DNA of 64,000 nucleotides from a virus (Duplodnaviria; Heunggongvirae; Uroviricota; Caudoviricetes): the IMG/VR virus record IMGVR_UViG_2576861193_000004, positions 1-64,000 of that record, one strand, 5' to 3'. Position numbers and translations under genes: made by a program. Shown here one piece after another: positions 1,112 to 64,000 of this stretch; the first letter of the stretch is position 1; each line of letters opens with the position of its first letter. The notes below the pieces were generated by a model that did not search any database, was not told where the DNA came from, and worked only from the letters and a program-made list of their open reading frames with translations.

Positions 1112-1210
1112 CTACAGATATACCTGTAGCCACTGCCATCAGATAGAGTTTGATCATGTGTTTTCCTATGTGGCTATTGTGTGTAGATGATAAGTAGGTG
1201 CTTATATATT

Positions 1211-1247: not shown

Positions 1248-3587
1248 TTAATCTTCTAATTCATCTGTCGGTGATGTCTTCTCGCGCCTGTCATCTATTG
1301 CCTGTAACGCAGCAATGATTTCAGCTAATGGCTTCTCCCGGTACATCTCGACGATCTGTGATTTGGTGTATTTCTTCTCGCCAATTTCCACACGCCCGCT
1401 GGCGCTCTTGGGCAGGTATCCTTCCTCCAGCATGTATTCGACCAGAGACTCGACGACGTCCAGCCCGCGAGTCGGGTCGAAGTAGAATTTCCATGAGCAT
1501 TTGCCAAACGGAGGCGCGACTTTGTTTTTAATGCACTCGGCGCCAACGTCCTGTCCGATCTTCTCTTTGCCATCCTTCATGACGGATGCACCCAGACGGA
1601 TGCGCACCGACGCGTAGAACTTCGGAGAGTCGCCACCCGGAGACGTAGTCGGATCGCCAAACATCACACCAATTTTGGTACGCACCTGGTTCAAGAAGAT
1701 GATGCACGCGTTGTACTTACGCGCCCAAAGCGCCAGAGTAGGGAAGTTCGCACTTGTCGCGCGCGCCAGCGCCGTGTTGTCGTTCATGTTCAGCTGATCT
1801 TTGTCCTTCGCAGTGCCTTCTGCCATCTTGTCGAACTTCTCAGCCTTCGAGTTCGGAACCATCGACGCCAGAGAGTCGGCTACGATGCAGATAGGGGCTG
1901 TTTCCGGAATAAGCTCTTCGTCGCGCACCAGCTTGAGGATTGTGCCGATCAGCTCTACGGAGTCTTCGAAGGTATCCGGCTGTTTGTAGACCCACTGACC
2001 GTCGTCTTCGTCGGCGTTCAGTCCGTTCGCTACCGCCAGACCAACGTCGAAACTGTTTTCGTGGTCAAGGAATACGGCCAGACCATCCTGTTTTTGTGCT
2101 GACACCATCGCAGCCGTCGCGAGGAATGTGTTGTGGCTGATAATCCCGTTAGACCAGAAAGAGTGTGTTTCCGGCATCGCTACGTCGAACGTTGGTGCTT
2201 CACCTTCCTCAATAGCCACGACTTCGTCGTAGAACAAGTTAGAGTCAATTACCGCTGCCAGTTGTGCAAACAGATGCTCGTTAAAACGATTCTTTCTGCC
2301 AATGAAGGAGACATAGATTTCTCGCAGTTTGTCTATTCCGACACGATCGCCGCGGCCAATAACGTGATCTACCAGAACGTAGTCTTTACGAGAGGTCTTG
2401 GTGAGTGACTCGTAGAGTGATTTCACTAAGCCGCTGATGTGCGGAACGTAGCCTAAATAAGTGCGGTCAAAACTAATGTCCCGTTTGGTTGCCACTGCTA
2501 AACGAGCCGGAGACTCGAACCCAATCGTTGACAGGAAAAGGTCGTAGTTAGAGCCACTGAATGACAGCCGGTAATATATGTTTTTATAACCTGCGACGTG
2601 TTTTTCAGAGATAGTTGACGTAATCCCCAGATTCAGGAGCATGAGGCGAATTTGCTGTAGCAGCAGCCCACTCGCGCTCACAACCTCAATGCAGCGACCA
2701 TCATTGACGTGGCATTCCAGCTCAAAGTAGCCGCGAAGGAATGCAATTTGAGCCTCGCTATTGGCGCGACGCACACTCAACGGAACCTGCTTGCCAGCAG
2801 CTTTCTCATACTCCAGACCATATTCTTTAAAAAGCAGCGAACGCACCTCTTTGCTAAACAGCACATGGTCTTCCGAGCCGTTATGTTTTCTCGTAACTGG
2901 CATCTTGTCTGATACCAGCGAAATGAGGCGGTAGTACTCATCCTTGATGAATGGATCTGTGTTAGAAACATGCACAGAATTTTCAGAGGCCACGTATCCG
3001 TCAGCAATTAAATAGCCCATCAGTTTTGCGATATTGGCATCCAAGTGCTGATCGCCGAATTGATGTGTGCCAACCATTGAAGGAATCGTGTCGCCTACAC
3101 TGATTTTTTCAGCATGTCGCCAGACGACATTACCTAAGTCGTCAACCACACGGATTGGGTGACGGAACGTAGCCTCGATATAACCGCCTGATGCCAGCTT
3201 AATACGCTTGAATTTGCGACGGTTGTTCCATGTCAGGTGTGAGGTCTTCTCTATCACGCCATTTTCATTGATGAGTCCAACGTTATGCTCTACATCGCGA
3301 GTAGTGCATGTCGCTTTGTACCCTTCAATCTCAAACAACTCTTTCACTGTTACCATTCCACGCTCCGTCAGCAGCATGGTGTCTGCGGTAACACATTTCC
3401 CCGCGCTTGGTGGCCCGAATACTTCTACGATACGACCACATGGGAAACCGCCATCGTAACGACCGGAAATAGCTTTGTTTAACGGAGGAAAGCCTGTGTC
3501 AATCCAATGAGTTACTTTCTGAATTTCGTCGTTGCTACCGATTTTCTTTTTCAGAGCAAGTGCCAGTGCGGATTTTCCTTTTGCCAT
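1248..3587 (-). CDS. RecA/UvsX-like recombinase interrupted by an intein
   Basis: N-extein ...GRIVEVFGPPSAGK then C-extein TFLATAAMVSAQKQDGLAVFLDHENSFD... reconstitutes a RecA P-loop and core (compare E. coli RecA [20 protein letters not shown]...). Spliced length about 357 aa. Confidence 0.9.
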   Translation of the reverse strand: MAKGKSALALALKKKIGSNDEIQKVTHWIDTGFPPLNKAISGRYDGGFPCGRIVEVFGPPSAGKCVTADTMLLTERGMVTVKELFEIEGYKATCTTRDVEHNVGLINENGVIEKTSHLTWNNRRKFKRIKLASGGYIEATFRHPIRVVDDLGNVVWRHAEKISVGDTIPSMVGTHQFGDQHLDANIAKLMGYLIADGYVASENSVHVSNTDPFIKDEYYRLISLVSDKMPVTRKHNGSEDHVLFSKEVRSLLFKEYGLEYEKAAGKQVPLSVRRANSEAQIAFLRGYFELECHVNDGRCIEVVSASGLLLQQIRLMLLNLGITSTISEKHVAGYKNIYYRLSFSGSNYDLFLSTIGFESPARLAVATKRDISFDRTYLGYVPHISGLVKSLYESLTKTSRKDYVLVDHVIGRGDRVGIDKLREIYVSFIGRKNRFNEHLFAQLAAVIDSNLFYDEVVAIEEGEAPTFDVAMPETHSFWSNGIISHNTFLATAAMVSAQKQDGLAVFLDHENSFDVGLAVANGLNADEDDGQWVYKQPDTFEDSVELIGTILKLVRDEELIPETAPICIVADSLASMVPNSKAEKFDKMAEGTAKDKDQLNMNDNTALARATSANFPTLALWARKYNACIIFLNQVRTKIGVMFGDPTTSPGGDSPKFYASVRIRLGASVMKDGKEKIGQDVGAECIKNKVAPPFGKCSWKFYFDPTRGLDVVESLVEYMLEEGYLPKSASGRVEIGEKKYTKSQIVEMYREKPLAEIIAALQAIDDRREKTSPTDELED
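2130..3395 (-). mobile_element. intein (about 422 aa) with LAGLIDADG homing-endonuclease domain inserted in the recombinase P-loop
   Basis: Begins with Cys right after GPPSAGK, ends with HN followed by Thr (+1); internal LMGYLIADGYV motif; boundaries computed from residue positions 65 and 486. Confidence 0.8.
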
Positions 3588-5889: not shown

Positions 5890-6006
5890 GTGTTTCTCCT
5901 TGTTGTGATTTGGCCGATGGCGCTATGCGCGTTGGGCTTTCGTTCATTCGTGGCTCTTTCGAGCTGTTAAATGATAGATCAGCACTTACTTATTATCTAT
6001 CAAAAA

Positions 6007-6438: not shown

Positions 6439-6645
6439 TCTAATAGGTTCCTACTTATAAAATCTGTATCAATTATATCAAACAGAGAACGGGTTTATGG
6501 CGTCATGTCAACTTTGTTCAGGGGAAGATATTGAGATCACCGAAGATAATTAGTTGTCTTATTTTGGTAAGCTGTGCTGACCATCTTTAGGTCACATACA
6601 TGAGATGGATGGGGTGTGGCATGAACGGATGAAATTCAGTCGCCG

Positions 6646-7691: not shown

Positions 7692-7869
7692 GTTGGTTTG
7701 CAAGACAGACCTTATGTAAGCAGTTTTAGTAAAGCAGTCTCAGTTCAGTGTTATCTTCTGATTTCCCTTCTTCGTGAGTCTCCTCCTTAAGTGCCTAAGT
7801 AAGTCCCAATCTATACAGATCAAATTCTCGCCGCACTATGTGGCTCACAAAATTAAGAAGGTAATATCT
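7692..7869 (+). promoter_or_regulatory. long cspA-like 5' untranslated leader (candidate RNA thermosensor / cold box)
   Basis: About 178-nt leader with segments resembling the E. coli cspA leader (CAGACC, AAAGCAG, GTAGTAA, AAGGTAATA before the ATG). Compared from memory. Confidence 0.45.
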
Positions 7870-13311: not shown

Positions 13312-13406
13312 GCGTTTTTCCTTTGTTTTCTAATGAGCGTTCAACTTCTTATATAAATATATCATTATCTATCGTAAGTGGTTACTTATCGTTAAGGCTG
13401 TTTTGT

Positions 13407-15613: not shown

Positions 15614-15826
15614 TTAACAGATTCTGACGGCTAAAGACCCGGAGCCGGTATTGAGAAGCGTGAAGCGTTTGTTGTTAAGTTCGAATATAAATCCAGTTGT
15701 GTCATTCACACCAACCTGAATCTGCTCATTCGGTAGATCGGTGAGGATGTCAGCTACACACTCATCAGCTAATTTCTGTACGTGTCCGATCTCAAGAGCG
15801 ATTAGGCTGGAAATAGTGGTGTTCAT
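15614..15826 (-). CDS. hypothetical protein
   Basis: 70-aa ORF downstream of the VWA gene on the same strand; no motif. Confidence 0.35.
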   Translation of the reverse strand: MNTTISSLIALEIGHVQKLADECVADILTDLPNEQIQVGVNDTTGFIFELNNKRFTLLNTGSGSLAVRIC

Positions 15827-16077
15827 TCAATCAATCCATTCTAACTTATACTATGGTAAGGAATACTACTAAAATTTGTATCAATACTGAATACATTCAT
15901 ATCATATGCAAGTTGATTTTCTTACCTGTTTTGGGCTAATTTTTCTCCGTGCAATGGCCTTTAACCGGTCTTTTAAGTGCCTATCGAAAAAAATGATAAT
16001 AGCTTTACAACCCTAACCTTTGATGTAATATCGGTAAGCACTTACCAGAGAGAATTGAACGCGCAAAGGTTGTAACC

Positions 16078-16464
16078 ATGTCTGATAACAAGATTGAATT
16101 TATAGAAAGTCGCTACGCTGCTTTTATCGCAGGGTTGATTGAATCCTCACCTATGAGCCAGGCCCAGATAGCCAAAACAATTGGGTATAAAAACGCCAAC
16201 AACCTTTCTTTAATTAAAAGCGGCAAAATTCCTTTGCCTATCGATAAGGTTCGTCCGCTGGCGCTGGCACTGGGTATTGAGCCAAGTCGTCTTATGATGA
16301 TGGTGCTGGAAGAACGCCAACCCGAACTCGCAGCATTTTTATACAAAGAAGGCACTGCTCCTCTTAACGAGGACGAAAAACAGGTTCTTGCTGCATATAA
16401 CGAGCGATTCGGTAAAGAGAAAGGCGCATCACAAAAGGTTGTTGAGGCCATAAAGTCTCTATGA
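16078..16464 (+). CDS. XRE-family helix-turn-helix transcriptional regulator
   Basis: HTH segment MSQAQIAKTIGYKNANNLSLIKSGK; 128 aa; convergent with the recombinase gene. Confidence 0.7.
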   Translation: MSDNKIEFIESRYAAFIAGLIESSPMSQAQIAKTIGYKNANNLSLIKSGKIPLPIDKVRPLALALGIEPSRLMMMVLEERQPELAAFLYKEGTAPLNEDEKQVLAAYNERFGKEKGASQKVVEAIKSL

Positions 16465-18586: not shown

Positions 18587-18673
18587 TGGCGGAGAGTAAT
18601 GGAATCGAACCATCATCGCTTGCGCAATGGGACGGTTTTCAAGACCGCTTGAGCACCATGCTCCCTACTCTCC
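18587..18673 (-). tRNA. tRNA-Ser: tRNA-Ser (anticodon UGA), type II with long variable arm
   Basis: Manual fold of the reverse complement: 7-bp acceptor stem GGAGAGT/ACTCTCC, discriminator G, encoded CCA, T-loop TTCGATT, anticodon loop CTTGAAA. 87 nt. Confidence 0.8.
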
Positions 18674-18772
18674 AGCTATTGTGATGGTCGGTGCTGAACT
18701 CCGACACAGGGTTGTAGCAAGCCCCGCAAAGCGCGCACTACTGTAGTTGCGGCACATCAGCCTGTGCATTCA

Positions 18773-18862
18773 TCACAACGGTAAGATCACTACCTTTCGA
18801 CCAGTCATTGTGCACATGAACGACGATTAACCGTAATGATCTTATCGTTGTGTTGTGAAGCC
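18773..18862. repeat. long stem-loop 1 in tRNA spacer (arms CACAACGGTAAGATCA / TGATCTTATCGTTGTG)
   Basis: About 17-bp inverted arms with one mismatch, separated by about 50 nt; paralogous to stem-loop 2. Confidence 0.6.
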
Positions 18863-18900
18863 AGATGCTTATCTTCTGGTTGCTTCAAAGAGCTGCACTT

Positions 18901-18996
18901 CCTCACAACGGTAAGAGCACTGGTCTGACTCTATCGATTTACGGGCTTGTGGGTCAGTATCGCCGATTCGCCCAATGCTCTTACCTGTTGTGTTGG
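18901..18996. repeat. long stem-loop 2 in tRNA spacer (arms CACAACGGTAAGAGCA / TGCTCTTACCTGTTGTG)
   Basis: About 17-bp inverted arms separated by about 50 nt; right arm abuts the 3' end of tRNA-Thr. Confidence 0.6.
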
Positions 18997-19069
18997 TGCC
19001 GGTTAACGGGATCGAACCGCTGACATCCTGCTTACAAGGCAGGCGCTCTACCAACTGAGCTAAACCGGC
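18994..19069 (-). tRNA. tRNA-Thr: tRNA-Thr (anticodon UGU)
   Basis: Reverse complement GCCGGTTTAGCTCAGTTGGTAGAGCGCCTGCCTTGTAAGCAGG...GGTTCGATCC...AACCGGCACCA: D-stem GCTC/GAGC, anticodon stem CCTGC/GCAGG, loop CTTGTAA. 76 nt. Confidence 0.85.
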
Positions 19070-19073
19070 AATT

Positions 19074-19160
19074 TGGTGGGGAGTGATGGAGTCGAACCAC
19101 CCGAGTCGCAATGACAGTAGATTTACAGTCTACCCCGCTGCCCCTACGGACTAACTCCCC
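19074..19160 (-). tRNA. tRNA-Tyr: tRNA-Tyr (anticodon GUA), type II
   Basis: Acceptor GGGGAGT/ACTCCCC, anticodon arm GTAGA-CTGTAAA-TCTAC, long variable arm, T-loop TTCGACT, CCA encoded. 87 nt. Confidence 0.8.
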
Positions 19161-19165
19161 TAAAT

Positions 19166-19240
19166 TGGCGATGGTGGGTGGATTCGAACCACCGACCAGT
19201 TGGTTAACAGCCAACTGCTCTACCGCTGAGCTACACCATC
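19166..19240 (-). tRNA. tRNA-Asn: tRNA-Asn (anticodon GUU)
   Basis: Acceptor GATGGTG/CACCATC, D-arm GCTC-AGCGGTA-GAGC, anticodon arm GTTGG-CTGTTAA-CCAAC, T-arm GGTGG-TTCGAAT-CCACC, CCA encoded. 75 nt. Confidence 0.85.
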
Positions 19241-19813: not shown

Positions 19814-20018
19814 TGCGTTCTGCAATCACACTCGCTCAGTGTGTCCCATTTCGGTAACGAGGCTGGAAACTGACCTCGCTGGTGTTTGGCTTATTAGGCT
19901 ACTGCCAGATAGACTTCTTCGTTTGCACTTGTATTTAAGTTCAAACAGTCGCGTCTCAACGAAAACAAAGTCATCTTATACATAAAAGATAAGTAAGTAA
20001 ATACTTATCACCATGTTT

Positions 20019-22468: not shown

Positions 22469-22523
22469 AAATAATCTTGTACTTACCTATCGTTATTTGC
22501 GTAAAAAACGACGCGCGGAGAGA

Positions 22524-23300: not shown

Positions 23301-23375
23301 ACCAACTCCTAGCTAACAGATGAAAGTATTCTTACAGAAAGATAAGTAATCATCTACTTATTTTAGCGGCACTTG

Positions 23376-26772: not shown

Positions 26773-26879
26773 CTGGTAGGTAGTTACTTACTTATCACAA
26801 TGAGCGGATGATAGCGACTGGTGGCAGTTTTTGGAAGTGGAAACGGAAGGGAGTTGTTCTGGTGGTGTCTTTTAAAAGA

Positions 26880-26934
26880 CCTGCTTCCGTATATATTTAA
26901 TAAGTTACTTATTATTTATATATACAGAAGCAGG
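26880..26934. repeat. 55-bp imperfect palindrome, copy A (CCTGCTTCCGTATATATTTAATAAGTTACTTATTATTTATATATACAGAAGCAGG)
   Basis: Identical 55-mer also at 58829..58883; 17-bp arms with one asymmetric position around an AT-rich palindromic core AATAAGTTACTTATT; flanked by perfect palindrome GTCTTTTAAAAGAC. Confidence 0.9.
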
Positions 26935-31473: not shown

Positions 31474-31594
31474 GAAAAGTCAAATCGGGATGGCGTGTTT
31501 ATATCATATTTTAACCATTTGTAGTAGGTATGTACTTACCTACTATATATCTTGCAAACTAATCGTTGTTAATAATGCAGATATAATCTGCCCC

Positions 31595-36348: not shown

Positions 36349-36440
36349 GTTGAATATGCTCCTTGATTTGGCGGGCTATCCTTGCCCGCCATTAAGTATA
36401 TACTTACCTATTTTTACCGATATAAAATTTTTTTCCACCA

Positions 36441-43255: not shown

Positions 43256-43337
43256 TGTTTCATCCTTGAAATAAGTAGGCGCTAACATCCTGTCAGCGCC
43301 ACAATGATAGTAAATTAGTACTTACTTATCCAGATGC

Positions 43338-49758: not shown

Positions 49759-49832
49759 TGATGGAAAACTCCTTTTTCCGTTAATTCTACGCATTCATTG
49801 CGCTAATAGTAAGTATATACTTACCAATTGAG

Positions 49833-53349: not shown

Positions 53350-53380
53350 ACAAAAAGGGTGGGCGTATAGCCCACCCTTT
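53350..53380 (-). terminator. rho-independent terminator after the major capsid gene
   Basis: GC-rich stem gggtgggc / gcccaccc followed on the minus strand by TTTTT; the next gene's AGGAG Shine-Dalgarno follows immediately. Confidence 0.6.
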
Positions 53381-53411
53381 AACATAGATAACTACTTATC
53401 TACTACACTGA

Positions 53412-55221: not shown

Positions 55222-56796
55222 TCACTCGTTCTCTTGAGTAGATGAGTCCCCATTCCCTCGGGGTTGATCTTGCCCGCTTTCTTGGGCCGCACCACGATCA
55301 TAAGTAAGTACTGACTTATTTTCAAGGGTATTTAGATCATTTTTTGGAGGAAAATTCAAGAGATCTTTATCAAATTCCTTTTTCATCGCCTCAGTAATGT
55401 TCGGGAAAATCTTCTCAATAAGCATTTCCATCTGGTGACGACGTACAGAGTCCGGTGCCTGAAGTAATGACAGTTTCTCGGCAACAGAAAATTCATCAGT
55501 AAGGCCACGAATATCGAAACTTTCTGGATACGCAATTAAAGAGTGGTCTTCGTCCAGATCTACCCCCATCCATTTCGCAACCAGTAGCATGATTTGGCGT
55601 TCAGCCCTTTCCAGACGCTCTGCTTTTGTGACAAGCAAGCTATTTACACGCTGGAAGTCATACATTTTTGCGGCACCAGATGAATTATCGATTCCCTGTG
55701 CGTTGTCCTGCTTCGTTCGCTCACCAGCTACACCAACTGAATGGTAGATTTCGTTAATCACCGTCTTAATCGTAGTGATGATCATCTGAGCTTGTTTCGG
55801 GTCTGGTGACAGATAAAACGGCTGGTTTCCACCTTCAGAATCGTAGGTGAAGACTCGCTTTGTGCCCATTTCAAGCACTTTAGTGTGGTTTTCATCACCA
55901 GGTAAAAGCGACTGTACCGGTATAGCCAACTGGCTAAATGTCTGATCCTGAATAATGGCATCAAGGTTTGACAGATAGTTTGCAACCGCACGATCAAGAT
56001 AAGCAATATCATCGATCAACGATGGGCTGAAATACGGTGATTCACTTTCTCCAATACAATCAACAGGAAACACAGGAACTACGCCGAGATTATGCGCGCC
56101 GCTGTCCTCTAAAATAACTTTTGCCTGACGACGACCTGCTCCACCAGCCCCCTTCTTCACTTCCTCACGGAACAGATACCACTCGTTTTGTGTCCACAGA
56201 CGATAACGTTGGTATTCCTGACCTGTAGAAGTAAAAGGATCTGCGTCATCGCGAGCGACTTCCACAATTAACGCCCATAACATATTCCCGTCGTCGTCCC
56301 ATGCCACATCCAGCATTTGCTGAGGTGAAATCCAGTAGGCGTAGGCGCGAGCATCTTTCTTTTTCTCGTCAGCTACTGACTCAACATCACCACTCATCGT
56401 GCTATCGACAACAACCCATATGCGACCGTAAATAGACGACTGCAAATCAATAGCGGCCATAAATGAGTCAATAGAGGCATTCTGGCGAGTCGCACGTTTC
56501 CAGAAATTGCGGATCTGCTCTGGTGCCTCTTCGATATTTCTATGAATGTCTTCTTTAAAGAGATATTTGTTGATGAGGTTTACCACCTCACGAGTGTGGT
56601 TGAAGCGATAAGCACGCTCAACTCGCTCCTTAAACTCCTGATCTCCCTCTTTAAAGTAACGAAAGATATTGTCTGTAAACCAACCACGCCCGCCAGCGTA
56701 AGTGCTGGCGAGGAAGTCCCAATGTTCTTTTTTCTTTTCGTATTCCGGGTGGCGTCGCGCCACCAGATCCTTAATTTGTTTGTCGTTCAATTCCAT
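55222..56796 (-). CDS. portal protein
   Basis: 524 aa immediately downstream of the large terminase gene; acidic C-terminus. Confidence 0.7.
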   Translation of the reverse strand: MELNDKQIKDLVARRHPEYEKKKEHWDFLASTYAGGRGWFTDNIFRYFKEGDQEFKERVERAYRFNHTREVVNLINKYLFKEDIHRNIEEAPEQIRNFWKRATRQNASIDSFMAAIDLQSSIYGRIWVVVDSTMSGDVESVADEKKKDARAYAYWISPQQMLDVAWDDDGNMLWALIVEVARDDADPFTSTGQEYQRYRLWTQNEWYLFREEVKKGAGGAGRRQAKVILEDSGAHNLGVVPVFPVDCIGESESPYFSPSLIDDIAYLDRAVANYLSNLDAIIQDQTFSQLAIPVQSLLPGDENHTKVLEMGTKRVFTYDSEGGNQPFYLSPDPKQAQMIITTIKTVINEIYHSVGVAGERTKQDNAQGIDNSSGAAKMYDFQRVNSLLVTKAERLERAERQIMLLVAKWMGVDLDEDHSLIAYPESFDIRGLTDEFSVAEKLSLLQAPDSVRRHQMEMLIEKIFPNITEAMKKEFDKDLLNFPPKNDLNTLENKSVLTYDRGAAQESGQDQPRGNGDSSTQENE

Positions 56797-56822
56797 TTGA
56801 ATAACCTTAGATAATTACTTAC

Positions 56823-58079
56823 CTATCTAGAACCACCAAGAATAACACGGTTTTTGACTGGATACCTACGATGTACTGGATAGCCCAATGCGTCTGCACT
56901 ATGCTCAATGCCACCTGTCTTATCCATATCTCGTGTTCCAGGCTTGTAGATGACTTTTTCCAATGAATCAATCAAATGCTTGCACTTCGGATCGATATAC
57001 AGCCGGATATCTCCAGATGCGGTCATCAGCATTCGGTTAACAGCATTAACACGATCCGCAATTGGCGGGTGCTTTTTCGAATAATCGACACGTAAGAATC
57101 CCTTCTCTTTGAATATGTCGACGTCAGACTCCCCGCGAGCATGTTGGCGATAAGCACCTGCCGGATCTGGAAATACCGTTATCTGTGATTTCCAGCGCCA
57201 GAAGCGTCTCTCAAGCTCATCACAAACCTCTGCCGTGTTAGAGGAAAAGAGCACCAATTCATCAATTGCCCATAGCTCACCATTTGGCTGAGGTTGCAAA
57301 ATTACTGAAGACATCGGGTCAATGTTGAAGTCCTGCCCTACCCATATAGGCAACCGAGGGTTGAACTGAAGCGGTTTTACATGCACGTTACGATCGAACG
57401 GGTAGTAAACGCGCCCGGACATGTTCTCAAAGCTCGCCAGGTACTCCTGAGCGAACGATTTCGGGTCCATATCGTTCTTAGCAGCTTCAATTTCCGCCGT
57501 AGGCACAAACGGAGAATCGGCAGTTACAAACTGCCAGCTCTTCCACTGTCCCTTTCTTTGCAGCTCTACGTTCTGGCCTATAGTCCACAGTTTGTGAAAT
57601 TCCGAGAAGCCTTTTGGCGTACCAATGATCAGTGCACCGCCGCGTGTCGATGAAAGAGTAGGTCGTAACACCTTGTACCAGGTGTCAGCCTTCATATCCT
57701 GAAATTCATCAAGCACTACAAAATGCAACGCTACGCCGCGCAGAGTGTCAGGCTTATCAGCACCTTTGAGGGCGATCTCCGAACCGTTCTTCAACACGAT
57801 TGTCATCGTGGTGTCGTTCTTTTTCCTAACCCACTTACGAGGCAGAACTTCCTGTAGATCGTCCCACAAAATCTGGCGAGCCATCTGGTAAGTAGGAGCG
57901 ACATACCAGACCCTTTGCTTTTTTTCCTTTGCCGCCGCACGAATAATAGTGGAGATCGACAACCGGGATTTTCCCCAGCGTCGACCAGCACAAACAACTT
58001 TAAATCGATGCGGAGACTGGAAGACTTTCATCTGTCCAGAATGCAGTTGCACAAGACTGAGCGAGGACGGGATTGCCAT
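56823..58079 (-). CDS. terL: terminase large subunit
   Basis: Walker A VCAGRRWGKS, Walker B VVLDEFQ, C-terminal nuclease-like region with conserved acidic residues; 418 aa. Confidence 0.9.
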   Translation of the reverse strand: MAIPSSLSLVQLHSGQMKVFQSPHRFKVVCAGRRWGKSRLSISTIIRAAAKEKKQRVWYVAPTYQMARQILWDDLQEVLPRKWVRKKNDTTMTIVLKNGSEIALKGADKPDTLRGVALHFVVLDEFQDMKADTWYKVLRPTLSSTRGGALIIGTPKGFSEFHKLWTIGQNVELQRKGQWKSWQFVTADSPFVPTAEIEAAKNDMDPKSFAQEYLASFENMSGRVYYPFDRNVHVKPLQFNPRLPIWVGQDFNIDPMSSVILQPQPNGELWAIDELVLFSSNTAEVCDELERRFWRWKSQITVFPDPAGAYRQHARGESDVDIFKEKGFLRVDYSKKHPPIADRVNAVNRMLMTASGDIRLYIDPKCKHLIDSLEKVIYKPGTRDMDKTGGIEHSADALGYPVHRRYPVKNRVILGGSR

Positions 58080-58828: not shown

Positions 58829-58883
58829 CCTGCTTCCGTATATATTTAATAAGTTACTTATTATTTATATATACAGAAGCAGG
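58829..58883. repeat. 55-bp imperfect palindrome, copy B (identical to 26880..26934)
   Basis: Exact 55/55 match on the same strand; nested inside a larger inverted repeat (GGTCTGGG ... CCCAGACC); 118..172 nt upstream of the terS start. Confidence 0.9.
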
Positions 58884-58907: not shown

Positions 58908-59174
58908 TTACATCACCAGTAACTTCGCTTTGGCTCGACCTAAAGTGGTTAACCCAAGAGTTCGGCGGTGATAGCGATTGTCACTGCGTTGGCGCGTATG
59001 CCCTTTCTCCACCAGCCCCTTTTTTATCAGAGCGCGAATTGAGAACTGGATACTTTGCTTGGTTGTCTTGTACGGCAAAACTTCAAGCAATTCGTCCAGA
59101 TCAAGTAAATGACCTCGCTCATAACCGAGATTGAGCGTTTTGATGATGTCCTTTTGTTTATCGGTTAACGTCAT
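58908..59174 (-). CDS. winged-helix DNA-binding protein
   Basis: 88 aa with segment KQSIQFSIRALIKKGLVEK; AAGGA Shine-Dalgarno overlapping the upstream stop (coupled). Confidence 0.5.
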   Translation of the reverse strand: MTLTDKQKDIIKTLNLGYERGHLLDLDELLEVLPYKTTKQSIQFSIRALIKKGLVEKGHTRQRSDNRYHRRTLGLTTLGRAKAKLLVM

Positions 59175-60074: not shown

Positions 60075-60736
60075 AAATGAACCTCATCATGACTACCATT
60101 GTGATATTCCACCTTCACGCGTTCTTTGTAGTGCTTGGTGATCTGCATATCCGGGCGCAGCGCGTTCTTCAGGTCTTCGTGAGTCGTCGCCACCATTACC
60201 GTCGCACCAACCTTTCGAGCGGCACGCTGGAGGTTAGATGCCACAACCTGAGCGGTTACACGGTCTAGAACAGCACCGAACTCGTCAGCAGCCCACACTT
60301 TAGCGCCTGACTCAATCAGTTTGGCAATCTTGAGACGATATTTCTGACCGTCTGACATTTCAGAAGGCTTGCGAACAAACAGATATGCATCGTTCAGACC
60401 AGCCATAGATAACAACCCAAGCGCATCGCTGGTCGTTTTGCCCAACTGATCGATGACGTTAACCTCATTATCGAAGGTAAAATCATCGATGGAGGCTACA
60501 GACAGCCCTTCATCCTTCATCTGTCGTTGCAACTCGCGCAGCACAACGGATTTGCCGGAACCGGATTGGCCGGTGATGTACACCACATCGCCCTGCTTCA
60601 CTTCCAGCTCCAGATTGTCGTAAAGCGTCCACTCTTTTTCGTCCAGGCCAAGCCCGAACGACTCAGCGATTTCCAACGTGCGCGTGGTTTTATTTACGCG
60701 TGTCTGAAACGATACGTTGATGATGTATTTGCTCAT
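60071..60736 (-). CDS. single-cassette ABC-type ATPase (no transmembrane partner)
   Basis: Walker A GQSGSGKS, signature-like MSDGQKYRLKIAKL, Walker B VWAADEF, H-loop ATTHED; 221 aa. Confidence 0.75.
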   Translation of the reverse strand: MSKYIINVSFQTRVNKTTRTLEIAESFGLGLDEKEWTLYDNLELEVKQGDVVYITGQSGSGKSVVLRELQRQMKDEGLSVASIDDFTFDNEVNVIDQLGKTTSDALGLLSMAGLNDAYLFVRKPSEMSDGQKYRLKIAKLIESGAKVWAADEFGAVLDRVTAQVVASNLQRAARKVGATVMVATTHEDLKNALRPDMQITKHYKERVKVEYHNGSHDEVHL

Positions 60737-61401
60737 GCAGCCATCTCCCCGGAAGAGATCTTCTCCGCATATGCCACAAATGCGTCTACACCGCTTTCTC
60801 CCGTCATTTCTTCCATATGGGCAAGCAAATCACCAACAACAATGGCAGAGCCAGCAGGGAGCGTTTTAAAGCCCAATACGTCGACAACACGTACTTCTTC
60901 CGCTGCAACTTCATGACTGATCTCGGTGTGTTCATCCTTCTGTCGTTTAGTTTCTTCGCCAAGATCGATAACTAGCGAGTCGGTGTCCATTTCTTCTGTC
61001 ATGCTGCCAACGAGAACATTCAACTCACGCTCTTCAAAGCCGAAAACCTCGATATCGTCCAGAACAAGCGACTCAAGCTCTTTCTGTAGCTTAATTGCAT
61101 CGTAATCAATGCTGGCAAGTCGGTTATCTTCAAGACGCTTCGCACGAACCTCGTCATCACTGAGATCATCGCGAACAATAACCGGTACGCGCTCAAGTCC
61201 AGCAAAAATTGCAGCCTCACGGCGGCCGTGGCCAGTAATAATTACGTCGTTCTTATCGACCGTAATTGGCTGGTCAAATCCGCGCTTTTTAATGGCTGCG
61301 GCCAGATCTCGGATCTGCTGTTCATCATGCTTTTTGGCATTCATCTCATAGGGAATAAGATCTGCCGGGTCGCGATATACGATTTCAAACTTTTTGGTCA
61401 T
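60733..61401 (-). CDS. ParB/Srx-fold N-terminal domain protein (ParB-like nuclease domain) 1
   Basis: Pattern LIPYEMNAKKHDEQQIRDLAAAIKKRGFDQPITVDKNDVIITGHGRREAAIFAGLERVPV; start ATG overlaps the upstream stop (TAATG). Confidence 0.75.
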   Translation of the reverse strand: MTKKFEIVYRDPADLIPYEMNAKKHDEQQIRDLAAAIKKRGFDQPITVDKNDVIITGHGRREAAIFAGLERVPVIVRDDLSDDEVRAKRLEDNRLASIDYDAIKLQKELESLVLDDIEVFGFEERELNVLVGSMTEEMDTDSLVIDLGEETKRQKDEHTEISHEVAAEEVRVVDVLGFKTLPAGSAIVVGDLLAHMEEMTGESGVDAFVAYAEKISSGEMAA

Positions 61402-62081
61402 TACATACGCTCCTTGTAGTAGTCGACCAGCCACACCAGAGCCTCACCAGCGTTTTCCATTTCATTGCCAGTATTAATTGCCTGGTCTTTGATGATGTTT
61501 TTTATGGTTTCTGCAACGCGATCTGACGCATCGAAAGTTACTTTGAAGCGCATGGTCTGATGTTCCGCACCGACACGTTCGGTTTTCTCTCGTTTGTCGG
61601 TATCGACAGGCTCATCACTACCACGAGACAACGCCTCCAGTGCTTCAAGGTCGATTGCCGCCTCTTTTGCTAAAACCATCGAGATTTCGTCGTCATACGG
61701 GGCGATTTCAGACAGTTGATAGTCAAGTTCTGACTGAATTTCTTCAATGAAGCGCTGCAATGCGATTTGGTCGTCTTCACCGTATCGCTCGTTGTCCACC
61801 AGTGACATCTGTTTAGCTACGACATCGCTAATTTTGCCCACAGAAAGCACCGGAACCGTTGAAATTCCTTGCTCAATAGCAGCACGCCAGCGATGTTCGC
61901 CGCCGAGGATTTCAAAAAATCCATCTTCAAGTTCACGAGCCAAAATTGGCTTAAAAAAGCCCAATTTTTCGATAGAACCTTTCAGTTTTTCAAAATTCTG
62001 CGCACCAACCGAATTGGTGTTCCAGGTATTCGGGCGAAGGTTGGCAACATCAACCTGCAAAATCGTGATTTTTACATCCAT
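61401..62081 (-). CDS. ParB/Srx-fold N-terminal domain protein (ParB-like nuclease domain) 2
   Basis: Pattern LRPNTWNTN...KLKGSIEKLGFFKPILAREL..GFFEILGGEHRWRAAIEQGISTVPV; start set to ATG 62081 (track start 62099 is GTG). Confidence 0.7.
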   Translation of the reverse strand: MDVKITILQVDVANLRPNTWNTNSVGAQNFEKLKGSIEKLGFFKPILARELEDGFFEILGGEHRWRAAIEQGISTVPVLSVGKISDVVAKQMSLVDNERYGEDDQIALQRFIEEIQSELDYQLSEIAPYDDEISMVLAKEAAIDLEALEALSRGSDEPVDTDKREKTERVGAEHQTMRFKVTFDASDRVAETIKNIIKDQAINTGNEMENAGEALVWLVDYYKERM

Positions 62082-62163
62082 TTTATTGCTACAATCCACT
62101 ATGTAATCACTTACTTATTATAATAGCCAAATAACATACAAAAGGCACTAAGGAAAGAGGTTT

Positions 62164-63723: not shown

Positions 63724-63725
63724 TT

Positions 63726-64000
63726 ATGAGCGAAAAGAAAACAACTTATTGCCAAGTGGCATTGTCTGATAAGGCCAATGAAAAACTTGGAAAATTTCAA
63801 ATAAAACTCAAAGAGAAAAAAATCAAGATGTCTAAGGCTGAAGTTATCAATGCCATTCTGGAGACGATGACTATGGCTGAATTTGACAAAGTCACATCTG
63901 CCGTTGGGGTTTCCGCTAAGACGCGTGAGAAAATCATGCGCATCTATGAGAACTCCAATATGACAAAAAAAGATCTAGAGGAAATACTGAGCAGGTTGCC
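63726..64000 (+). CDS. hypothetical protein, 3' truncated by window end
   Basis: ATG at 63726 three nt after the helicase stop; open to the end of the window (MSEKKTTYCQVALSDKANEKLGKFQ...). Confidence 0.4.
   Translation, partial: MSEKKTTYCQVALSDKANEKLGKFQIKLKEKKIKMSKAEVINAILETMTMAEFDKVTSAVGVSAKTREKIMRIYENSNMTKKDLEEILSRL

Follow-up and report, generated by a model that had tools for sequence, protein, structure and literature searches.

Several replicons carry one short DNA site at many dispersed positions. The late promoters of phage P1 (n = 11) have the form AAGT(G/T)ACTT-N4-TAnnnT and lack a –35 element; their 9-bp box, AAGTnACTT, is centred near –21/–22, 4 bp from the –10, and they are confined to late (morphogenesis and lysis) operons. 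In the IncP plasmid RK2, the palindromic KorA and KorB operators (OA, GTTTAGCTAAAC; OB, TTTAGCSGCTAAA) recur at many promoters of the replicon, with 7–12 sites; one operator class overlaps the –10, and one of the regulators, KorB, is a ParB homologue. The stoperators of cluster A mycobacteriophages (13 bp; gp71 of L5) and the dispersed C1 operators of P1 are asymmetric, orientation-dependent sites bound by the immunity repressor. The ParB–parS, Noc–NBS and N15 SopB systems combine palindromes of 14–18 bp in many copies (parS, 16 bp, TGTTNCACGTGAAACA; NBS, 14 bp) with an element-encoded ParB-family protein.

The stretch of DNA analysed here (the window, 64,000 nucleotides of the virus record IMGVR_UViG_2576861193_000004) belongs to an SSU5/Cyrano-type phage-plasmid and carries a recurrent palindromic motif. 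A literature search for this motif found no description of it, and it is apparently an undescribed DNA site, for which protein binding is predicted from the sequence. It resembles the P1 late promoters in its phage-plasmid setting, its many dispersed copies, the lack of a –35 element, and a short palindromic box with AAGT…ACTT inside it ahead of a TAnnnT –10. However, only the AAGT and ACTT tetranucleotides are common to the P1 box and the motif (six P1 late promoters were extracted for comparison), and the motif spans 18–26 bp, is centred near –19.5, overlaps the –10 and heads early as well as late genes. Homologues of P1 Lpa and C1 were sought in the element and none was found; the best tblastn match to Lpa (gp10) across the window, Cyrano and SSU5 had an E-value of 0.73, and the profile of an 88-aa protein described below aligned to Lpa by hhalign with a probability of 0.05%. 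The working mode is most likely analogous to that of the P1 Lpa late promoters but not homologous; the box differs, and the protein would be unrelated.

As in RK2, one palindrome stands at many promoters of a replicon (~24–26 per genome here) and a ParB/Noc-like gene is present, but the motif is unrelated in sequence to OA and OB, the sites number ~25, and the context is a phage lytic programme. The dozens of copies in short co-directional gaps, often at the upstream stop codon, are reminiscent of the L5 stoperators and P1 C1 operators; unlike these, the motif is palindromic, persists in SSU5 in the absence of the putative repressor, and is conserved far past the usual range of an immunity group. 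Its sequence is also unrelated to parS and NBS, although some relatives have a CAC..GTG core, and in contrast to parS, NBS and SopB sites its position is linked to a –10-like hexamer and to the starts of transcription units.

Sequence and distribution of the sites

Sites were aligned on their dyad centre and scored as matches to an 18-bp consensus (x/18), with a position weight matrix (PWM) score given additionally for weak sites. The consensus is the quasi-palindrome TARGTAAGT/ACTTACYTA (the slash marks the dyad centre) with flanks aTGA and TCAt, giving an extended dyad of ~26 bp, aTGATARGTAAGT/ACTTACYTATCAt. The two halves fit the consensus about equally (191 versus 175 matches over 10 positions). 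A first-pass annotation of the window had described a family of TAAGTA-N-TACTTA palindromes, and a related site was present at all 11 places it listed, with offsets of a few bases. The perfect palindrome it gave at 49.8 kb is indeed there (GTAAGTATATACTTAC, 16 bp, 49809–49824), but this 16-mer is one register of a unit now redefined as 18–26 bp, with its centre usually after TAAGT. Loci beyond that list are 1191, 5975, 6440 (weak), 7796, 16031, 22472, 26777, 26894 and 58843.

The motif is strongly enriched. Allowing up to three mismatches, the 18-mer TARGTAAGTACTTACYTA was observed 11 times in the window against 0.05 expected from dinucleotide-preserving shuffles, TAAGTA-N0-12-TACTTA 5 times against 0.03, and RTAAGTA 32 times against 9.7 (highest shuffle value, 16). 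A PWM scan returned 53 matches, which collapse to ~19 loci, while Markov shuffles gave 3.1. The most enriched non-coding hexamer is TAAGTA, on the gene (minus) strand only, with 23 occurrences in 6.9 kb of non-coding DNA versus 5 in ~57 kb of coding DNA, so that AT-rich composition as the sole source of the motif was not borne out. Such a composition effect, a host transcription factor site or a plain sigma70 promoter would fit the AT-rich, intergenic character of the sites and the existence of TAnnnT hexamers. Besides the shuffles and the one-strand excess, which speak against composition, a consensus scan for sigma70 promoters with a –35 gave 12 observed versus 20.9 expected, and the chromosomes of 5,426 complete E. 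coli genomes contain no copy of the 30-nt consensus, on which grounds plain sigma70 promoters and a host-factor site were rejected; this group of explanations is very improbable. In the same genomes the 30-nt consensus occurs at 1,270 places in 241 genomes, all on plasmids of 100–116 kb.

The sites and two related repeat elements are as follows.

1191–1208, minus strand: site, 14/18, after a RecA/UvsX-like gene and before a small membrane-protein gene, flanked by TTGAAA-17-TATCAT (orthologues at Cyrano 57447 and SSU5 55696)
5975–5992, minus strand: site, 15/18, upstream of a gp32-like SSB gene; TAAGTAAGT/GCTGATCTA-tcat
6440–6457, minus strand: weak site, 12/18, PWM 18.6, upstream of a UvsY-like gene
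7796–7813, minus strand: site, 14/18, in a stretch without annotation in Cyrano, followed by AAGGAGG (orthologue at Cyrano 50839)
13371–13388, minus strand: site, 13/18, PWM 19.7, between cobT and cobS, with hexamer TACGAT
16031–16048, minus strand: site, 14/18, in the divergent gap between a putative repressor gene (16078–16464, plus strand) and a small ORF (15614–15826, minus strand) that heads the cobT–dnaE unit
19990–20007, minus strand: site, 16/18, ~750 nt upstream of a tRNA cluster (18587–19240)
22472–22489, minus strand: site, 14/18, upstream of a 160-aa ORF and DNA ligase unit
23343–23360, minus strand: site, 14/18, between the primase gene and a 258-aa ORF
26777–26794, minus strand: site, 16/18, in a divergent gap, heading the unit with the DnaB gene
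26880–26934, minus strand: 55-nt element, copy 1, containing a motif-like core (AATAAGTAACTTATT)
31525–31542, minus strand: site, 17/18, upstream of holin and lysis genes (the SSU5 counterpart is a perfect 26-bp palindrome)
36393–36410, minus strand: site, 16/18, between the genes for tail protein J and the tail fibre, then a hairpin at 36370–36390
43311–43328, minus strand: site, 16/18, between minor tail genes M and L, then a hairpin at 43278–43300
49810–49827, minus strand: site, 15/18, between the tail-completion and major tail genes; TTGGTAAGT/ATATACTTA-ctat, overlapping the perfect 16-mer
53385–53402, minus strand: site, 15/18, directly after the major capsid gene, then TATGTT and an intrinsic-terminator-like hairpin at ~53351–53380
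55301–55318, minus strand: site, 17/18, within the 3′ end of the portal ORF, filling the 17-bp spacer of TTGAAA-17-TATGAT
56808–56825, minus strand: site, 16/18, across the stop codon of TerL and 12 nt ahead of the portal ATG
58829–58883, minus strand: 55-nt element, copy 2, identical to copy 1, upstream of terS
62100–62117, no strand assigned: site, 15/18, in a 64-bp divergent gap between a UvsW-like helicase gene (plus strand) and a ParB-like operon (minus strand)

Among the 16 sites scoring at least 14/18, 14 lie in intergenic gaps, one in the 3′ end of the portal gene and one in a probably spurious ORF. The intergenic location claimed at first therefore holds for most sites but not for 55301–55318, which lies within the portal ORF ~80–100 nt before its stop codon, and the statement that the motif separates almost every operon segment was too strong, since sites of at least 13/18 occupy 16 of 36 non-coding gaps of at least 20 nt. 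Most of the virus-production genes have a site ahead of them. The units preceded by sites cover replication, recombination, structural, lysis and tRNA functions; early-type genes with sites upstream include those for SSB, UvsY, cobS, ligase and DnaB and the NrdA region, in addition to the tRNA unit. A small unannotated gene may lie downstream of the 7796 site, because AAGGAGG follows it. All three divergent gaps of the window carry sites (16031; 26777 and 26894; 62100), while none of its convergent gaps does. Sites are also found after terminators, at the start of new transcription units, as at Cyrano 96687. The plasmid-maintenance and toxin–antitoxin modules have no sites, and in Cyrano and SSU5 none lies upstream of the toxin–antitoxin, ParA, RepA or integrase modules. 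The genes reported to be expressed in the LF82 lysogen include several from the latter modules and do not include the motif-carrying units (PMC9928086).

Promoter-like geometry and RNA folding

Of 48 sites, 20 have the hexamer TAnnnT at one fixed offset and a further 10 have it 4 bp downstream of that (30 of 48 in both registers); the hexamer opens with the palindrome's outer TA. A T stands at position +13 in 15 of 24 Cyrano and 15 of 26 SSU5 sites, the downstream consensus being TAtcaT; a –35 element is present at only 2 of 24 sites. The first-pass idea of a promoter or operator in which a –10-like element is embedded describes the motif fairly. The evidence points to a promoter-associated, probably protein-bound site that acts as DNA: the sites are palindromic, element-specific and co-evolving, lie at unit starts as well as in divergent gaps, and have an outer TA that begins TAnnnT. 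The –10-likeness itself is largely symmetric, because it forms part of the extended palindrome ATGATA…TATCAT, in which the TCAT flank mirrors ATGA, and the excess of TAnnnT on the gene side is small (roughly 15 versus 10 of 23 sites).

The 17 bp between the two elements of a good sigma70 promoter (TTGAAA/TATnAT) are precisely where the conserved sites at 55301 and 1191 lie; the promoter at 55301 is the best sigma70-like match of its region, and this arrangement is a classic operator layout. A dyad spanning –28 to –11, over the –10, is likewise more typical of repressors. The sites might accordingly be global operators, at which an element-encoded repressor occludes the –10 of ~25 dispersed promoters for lytic silencing or timing, as the RK2 KorA/KorB operators, the dispersed C1 operators of P1 and the L5 stoperators do in resembling ways. 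The near-perfect symmetry of the site, its cover over the –10-like hexamer, the presence of one site within the putative immunity region and the absence of motif-bearing units from the list of lysogen-expressed genes all agree with such a role, as does the site after the capsid gene. A transcript begun there might end within ~30 nt, because the terminator follows at once, so that a promoter makes little sense at this place; the order site, hexamer, terminator is found after the capsid gene also in SSU5, L118, L116, L146 and RHph_N1_10. The site ahead of the portal gene leaves almost no leader. However, most sites lack a –35 and would offer a repressor little promoter to repress, and immunity specificities usually diversify, while this motif is constant across genera.

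The first-pass annotation had also considered an RNA processing site, and the motif did not behave as one. Folding energies range from 0 to –10.8 kcal/mol, and although folding is good at 31.5 kb (–10.8 kcal/mol) and 49.8 kb (–6.8 kcal/mol), 6 of 10 tested sites fold no better than shuffles (z above –1.5), and half of the sites are unable to make a hairpin. Departures from symmetry show no G:U bias (30 versus 29), variation is not compensatory, and within a genome it is the sequence rather than the pairing that is kept. The GC hairpins noted after several sites do exist, following those at 36393, 43311, 49810 and 53385, and the one in the tail-gene gap serves as a comparison.

49789–49803, minus strand: RNA hairpin GCGCA-AUGAA-UGCGU, beginning 6 nt past the site and followed by the tail-gene Shine–Dalgarno sequence (start codon 49758)

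In this hairpin 94.6% of cells are paired, four of the five pairs have changed on both sides, and none of 500 shuffles matched the covariation score. Genuine covarying hairpins thus exist just downstream of the motif, but the motif itself shows no covariation and lacks the compensated stem of an intrinsic terminator or processing hairpin that the 49789–49803 hairpin has. An RNA hairpin as the function of the motif was rejected on folding and G:U counts, and it is hardly credible that the motif acts as a transcribed processing site, stabiliser or terminator.

Conservation and candidate binding proteins

Comparison with related phages, proposed in the first-pass annotation, found the motif recurring at orthologous gaps genome-wide (Cyrano, n = 24; SSU5, n = 26). 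In 40 distinct orthologous sequences of the tail-gene gap, GTAAGTATATACTTA is nearly invariant, with three single-base exceptions, while the flanks vary. Relatives from E. coli, Salmonella and Klebsiella share the motif unchanged, as does the L111 lineage (65% TerL identity). Lineages at 56–65% TerL identity have different palindromes (TAAGTCAGT/ACTGACTTA, and others with the left halves TCAGTCATT, TTAGTAAGC and GTAAATCAAT) in an unchanged layout: the palindrome's outer TA opens a TAnnnT hexamer, and most of the sites lack a –35. As far as sequence comparison goes, these data show that the motif shifts between lineages while its geometry stays constant, and that it is specific to this type of element. 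A clear recurrent palindrome was seen in six of eight distant relatives taken from isolate genomes, which because of that origin are probably resident elements; the related lytic phage nickie has no recurrent palindrome.

Two proteins of the window are putative binders of the motif.

61401–62099, minus strand: first candidate, ParB/Noc-like protein with ParB_N (Pfam, 3.4e-13) and a helix-turn-helix
58908–59174, minus strand: second candidate, 88-aa winged-helix-like protein encoded just upstream of terS, with weak Sta1/Lrs14 matches

Residues 13–160 of the first match the Spo0J chain 1vz0 (E = 2.7e-9), and a ParB/Noc-like protein is encoded in every locus that reaches far enough upstream of TerL. 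The window's two ParB-like genes lie at 61401–62099 (ParB-like 1, or ParB1) and 60733–61434 (ParB-like 2). An HMM search detected the 88-aa protein in 79 of 81 loci; the remaining two contain little sequence upstream of TerL. Presence and absence were rejected as a pointer to the binder, as both candidates occur in every locus covering the region, including nickie (E = 7.6e-20 for the 88-aa protein), which keeps both though it has no motif. Covariation of the 88-aa recognition helix with motif variants was likewise rejected, being non-discriminating because the helix hardly varies and the motif classes track phylogeny. Scans of 16 regulatory-region and candidate proteins against PHROGs, Pfam and NCBIfam returned two ParB_N proteins, a FljA-like repressor and a weak winged-helix match, and no sigma factor, Lpa or known late activator.

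Some of these data bear on the operator role. In its favour, a ParB/Noc-like helix-turn-helix protein heads the operon whose divergent gap contains the 62100 site, and this gap is also occupied in six distant lineages (L146, L118, L127, L152, L111 and L137); at this site the better half and TATTAT/TATAAT face UvsW. Against it, CYRAN_45, a putative repressor and the only one annotated, lacks a homologue in SSU5, where every site is retained, and CYRAN_117, an RHH-like, lysogen-expressed protein, is limited to close relatives and diverges (52–58% identity) under an unchanged motif; both were rejected as binders. No other conserved lysogen-expressed protein was found. Neither ParB1 nor the 88-aa protein appears in the published list of lysogen-expressed genes (PMC9928086), which also disfavours a repressor. 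A global-operator role of the KorA/KorB kind is a serious rival, if a somewhat unlikely one.

The ParB_N proteins raise the further alternative that these ParB/Noc-like, CTPase-fold proteins load at the sites, which would then be parS- or NBS-like and serve partition, genome organisation or packaging, influencing transcription only secondarily, if at all; N15, with its dispersed SopB sites, offers a parallel. In the lineages examined, two ParB_N proteins are kept beside the best site, the motif is a multi-copy palindrome of 16–20 bp, variants such as TAAGTCAC..GTGACTTA have a parS-like CAC/GTG core, and a clear recurrent palindrome is present in six of the eight probably resident distant relatives. 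However, loading would not require a fixed position relative to TAnnnT and gene starts or the avoidance of convergent gaps and coding DNA, ParA lies ~35 kb away with no site nearby, and nickie has ParB-like genes without the motif. We consider this alternative improbable.

A predicted regulator of the lytic programme

The reading we prefer, with a probability of roughly 45%, is that the sites mark factor-dependent, "–10-only" lytic promoters at which a dimeric regulator encoded by the element binds; they are read in this way because the dyad overlaps a –10-like hexamer and a –35 is normally absent. A dimeric DNA-binding protein made by the phage-plasmid would bind the palindrome at ~20 copies in the window and ~25 per genome, heading the lytic units for replication, recombination, nucleotide metabolism, tRNAs, head, tail and lysis. 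Each site would place its dyad centre near –19.5, over the hexamer, and transcription would start ~6–8 nt past the hexamer. We infer activation over repression: the promoters would be off in the plasmid prophage and would all switch on when the factor is produced. The binder would be either the ParB/Noc-like protein (61401–62099) or the 88-aa winged-helix protein (58908–59174).

A wider proposal, which we regard as unlikely, is that throughout a large and widespread lineage of ~100-kb siphoviruses and phage-plasmids, spanning SSU5/pHCM2-like elements of Enterobacteria, Rhizobium phages and many metagenomic relatives, one element-encoded factor unrelated to Lpa and a co-evolving, –10-overlapping palindrome drive essentially the whole lytic programme. 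Either a CTP switch of the ParB/KorB type or a small winged-helix protein working as a promoter-specificity subunit could be this factor.

SSU5-like phage-plasmids are common in clinical Enterobacteria, motif-bearing elements being present in 241 of 5,426 complete E. coli genomes, and phage-plasmids, SSU5-like ones included, have been reported to carry resistance genes. The lysis–lysogeny control of SSU5-like elements is essentially uncharacterised, and one palindrome common to ~25 lytic units offers a direct handle on it: the motif predicts transcript starts and would allow the master regulator to be pulled down. It also provides a compact signature by which these elements can be recognised and typed and their operons annotated, and its variation between lineages, with the geometry kept, provides a natural experiment on how a regulator and its whole regulon co-evolve. 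If a single lineage-wide factor and its address are confirmed, they would constitute a new class of phage transcription factor–promoter pair.

Setting and shape of the recurrent palindrome

Judged by its sequence, the window is an SSU5-type phage-plasmid, with 96% identity over 10 kb to Escherichia phage Cyrano (pLF82) and ~81% identity to Salmonella phage SSU5. Nearly all of its genes lie on the minus strand, and the motif is therefore described on that strand. The modules of the window are as follows.

Recombination and replication genes: UvsX/RecA-like, gp32-like, UvsY-like, PolIII alpha, cobT/S, ligase, primase, DnaB
18587-19240, minus strand: tRNA cluster (Ser, Thr, Tyr, Asn)
Putative repressor and integrase
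Toxin-antitoxin and ParA
Lysis, tail and head genes; terminase
Operon with two ParB_N proteins, divergent from the UvsW-like helicase gene

The RecA/UvsX-like ORF (1248-3587, minus strand) encodes 779 aa, compared to 358 aa for the SSU5 recombinase, and may contain an intein or inserted domain. The Cyrano tRNA annotation lists Asn, Thr and Ser only, compared to the four in the window. Outside the window, Cyrano CYRAN_114 (L003 18781-19302) bears the annotation 'transcriptional regulator' and matches Pfam Flag1_repress, the FljA-type repressor of phase-1 flagellin, over its full length (E 1e-80); such cargo is unexpected in a phage-plasmid.

The first-pass annotation had listed palindromes at eleven intergenic places; a related sequence is present at all eleven, and that at 49809-49824, GTAAGTATATACTTAC, is indeed perfect. 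TAAGTA-N0-12-TACTTA occurs 5 times in the window (0.03 expected) and RTAAGTA 32 times (9.7 expected). In an unbiased hexamer comparison, minus-strand TAAGTA was by far the most enriched non-coding word (23 copies, compared to 5 in coding DNA eight times larger), and a position weight matrix (PWM) from 16 sites gave 53 matches in ~19 loci, compared to 3.1 in Markov shuffles.

Alignment of the window, Cyrano and SSU5 sites on the dyad centre yielded the 18-bp quasi-palindrome TARGTAAGT·ACTTACYTA (the dot marks the centre), with flanks that are symmetric as well (a-t-g/a-A … T-c-a-T); the 16-mer at 49.8 kb is this site in a register shifted by two bases. The two half-sites match their consensus nearly equally (191 vs 175), the inner right positions being somewhat looser. 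Strong left/right asymmetry and several spacing classes proved to be artefacts of anchoring on TAAGTA, and were gone on the dyad alignment. In the close relatives L105, L108 and L110 the inner positions are degenerate and the outer TAnGT(A)…(T)ACnTA is kept.

The window holds 11 copies of the 18-mer with at most 3 mismatches (0.05 expected). Sites with at least 14 of 18 consensus matches number 16, of which 14 fall in intergenic gaps or at gene boundaries, and the remaining two at the 3' end of the portal ORF and in an ORF call without Cyrano annotation. Sites of at least 13/18 occupy 16 of the 36 non-coding gaps of at least 20 nt; all divergent gaps carry them (16031; 26777 and 26894; 62100), and no convergent gap of the window does. 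The tRNA cluster may have its promoter at the site 19990-20007.

Over the whole genome, 24 sites were counted in Cyrano and 26 in SSU5, in orthologous places, and in both genomes the toxin-antitoxin, ParA, RepA and integrase modules have no site upstream. In the LF82 lysogen, the genes reported as expressed include several from these modules, and ciprofloxacin induction of Cyrano was 39-fold (PMC9928086). Among 5,426 complete E. coli genomes, 241 contain the 30-nt consensus, at 1,270 places in total; every one is on a plasmid of ~100-116 kb and none is on a chromosome. A host site was rejected on this distribution, and the motif is very improbably a host-factor site or an effect of base composition.

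Conservation, RNA structure and lineage versions

The gap upstream of the major tail gene was compared across 76 IMG/VR relatives (40 distinct sequences). GTAAGTATATACTTA is nearly invariant, with a single-base difference in 3 of the 40; variable bases lie upstream of the site and in the 20 nt downstream. A 5-bp RNA hairpin (49789-49803, minus strand) starts 6 nt past the site, before the Shine-Dalgarno of the tail gene. Across ~40 relatives 94.6% of cells are paired, four of the five pairs have changed on both sides (GCGCA/UGCGU, GUGUC/GACAC, GCACC/GGUGC, GCACA/UGUGC), and the observed covariation score was reached by 0 of 500 shuffles. The gap thus holds a true RNA structure, which may stabilise the transcript 5' end or act as a processing barrier.

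The motif behaves otherwise. Departures from symmetry in 48 sites are G:U-compatible 30 times on the sense and 29 times on the antisense strand, and ten sites have predicted RNA stabilities between 0 and -10.8 kcal/mol, six folding no better than shuffled sequence (z above -1.5). With no sense-strand G:U excess and most tested sites folding like shuffled sequence, the motif as an RNA element was rejected as scarcely credible.

In 80 loci fetched via TerL alignment (56-100% TerL identity), enriched intergenic words and recurrent palindromes were lineage-specific variations of one theme.

Half-sites of the palindrome by lineage (the dot marks the centre)
SSU5-like, L111, L112: TAAGTAAGT·
L146: TAAGTCAGT·ACTGACTTA
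L118, L122, L137 and others: TAAGTCAC(n)·
L129, L136, L139: TCAGTCATT·
L127, L128: TTAGTAAGC·GCTTACTAA
L116: ATAGTCAAA·
L152: ACTAACTAA·TTAGTTAGT
Rhizobium phage RHph_N1_10 (13 copies): GTAAATCAAT·ATTGATTTAC

In most of the lineages examined, the palindrome closes with a TA from which a TAnnnT-like hexamer starts, at +7 or +8 relative to the centre. Because the sequence varies and the geometry is fixed, these comparisons imply a putative site-binding factor that is encoded by the element and co-evolves with its sites.

RHph_N1_10 has a second repeat family, TCGCTAA(A/T)T, distinct from the palindrome, which clusters near ParA and in several gaps (e.g. L165 1032-1111, 3597-3633, 5605-5700, 11817-11860) and may be centromere-like. 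The lytic Pseudomonas phage nickie has the gene order of the window, and no recurrent palindrome was found in it. In its gaps (e.g. L084 41939-42005, 43738-43816, 47547-47617), -10-like hexamers (TATACT, CATAAT, TACAAT) are instead placed in palindrome loops, and the GC-rich arms of these palindromes vary between sites. This is a design of another type, based on structure, in a relative whose gene order is the same.

Two identical copies of a 55-nt element, CCTGCTTCTGTATATATAAATAATAAGTAACTTATTAAATATATACGGAAGCAGG, lie on the minus strand, at 26880-26934 upstream of the gene preceding DnaB and at 58829-58883 upstream of terS. The element forms a large, imperfect palindrome whose outer arms are GC-rich, and may serve as a pac site, an origin or a strong promoter. 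In nickie and RHph_N1_10 the same two positions hold analogous palindromes, AT-rich and GC-clamped.

Candidate binding proteins

The following gene products were considered.

16078-16464: putative repressor, with a 14/18 site lying 30 bp before its start
58908-59174: 88-aa protein
61401-62099: ParB-like 1
63724-64000 (L003 21222-21500): CYRAN_117, the gene after UvsW, which looks ribbon-helix-helix

The putative repressor was rejected as the binder, as it has no SSU5 homologue, yet SSU5 keeps all sites. CYRAN_117, also rejected, is confined to close relatives and fast-diverging (only 52-58% identity in relatives with 95% identical TerL). Its expression in the LF82 lysogen has been reported (PMC9928086), and it could be an immunity determinant.

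Every locus covering the region conserves a module of UvsW, divergent from ParB-like 1, ParB-like 2, an ABC ATPase, an ATPase-acetyltransferase-like protein, the 88-aa protein, TerS and TerL. ParB-like 1 aligns with Spo0J across the N-terminal domain and helix-turn-helix; that the motif is a ParB loading site is improbable, though less so than the RNA reading or the host-factor or composition reading. The 88-aa protein looks like a winged helix from its sequence, and has an HMM match in 79 of 81 loci, nickie included, the other two having little sequence upstream of TerL. Its putative recognition helix is near-constant between motif classes, and the classes track phylogeny, so covariation could not tell the candidates apart. 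The genes for which lysogen expression is reported (PMC9928086) include neither ParB-like 1 nor the 88-aa protein, which favours a lytic-phase role if one of them is the binder.

Promoter reading and comparison with P1

SSU5-like sites have T-A-t-c-a-T downstream of the dyad, and position +13 is T in 15 of 24 Cyrano and 15 of 26 SSU5 sites. Of 48 sites, 20 have TAnnnT at one fixed offset and 10 more have it 4 bp further on, with a modest bias to the gene side; the hexamer is partly a by-product of the extended palindrome ATGATA…TATCAT. No signal for a -35 at the proper distance was detected at the sites, bar two conserved exceptions (55301 and 1191), in which the dyad fills the 17-bp spacer of TTGAAA…TATGAT or TATCAT. 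Sigma70-type promoters are not enriched overall (12 found, 20.9 expected).

In the P1 record, late promoters consist of a 9-bp '-22 region', 4 bp and then the -10, and six that we extracted read AAGT(G/T)ACTT-N4-TAnnnT. Eleven P1 late promoters are described, the inverted repeat being the Lpa-binding site (PMC10695390). Both systems are phage-plasmids with a dispersed palindromic box and a -10 but no -35, and the AAGT/ACTT core is common to both boxes. They differ in box length and box centre, and in the overlap of the motif with the -10; no encoded Lpa or C1 homologue was found.

We hypothesize, at a little under even odds (roughly 0.45), that the sites would act as lytic promoters through the -10 alone, dependent on a factor. 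This is favoured by the lack of a -35 at most sites, their position at the heads of transcription units, the retention of the motif far beyond the usual range of immunity specificity, its persistence in SSU5 without the putative repressor, and the working precedent of P1. The main rival, possible but distinctly less probable, is a global operator of the KorA/KorB or stoperator kind, which the near-symmetry of the site, the overlap of the dyad with the -10, the two sites within spacers of full promoters, and the ParB-like regulator gene with a site in its own promoter gap all support.

The operator also gains from the capsid gene, where a strong intrinsic-terminator-like hairpin (53351-53380, minus strand) lies directly 3' of the motif, not 5'. 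The order capsid gene, site, hexamer, terminator is kept in distant lineages, and is awkward for a simple promoter model. In a variant of the promoter reading, a lambda-Q-like factor would load at the promoter and make RNA polymerase terminator-resistant, which would explain why a hexamer and then a hairpin or terminator repeatedly follow the site.

No mention of the motif was found in the literature searched. A dispersed regulator site in a phage-plasmid is of an already known kind; what appears undescribed is this particular box with its geometry, the breadth of lytic genes that it covers and the way it has diversified between lineages.
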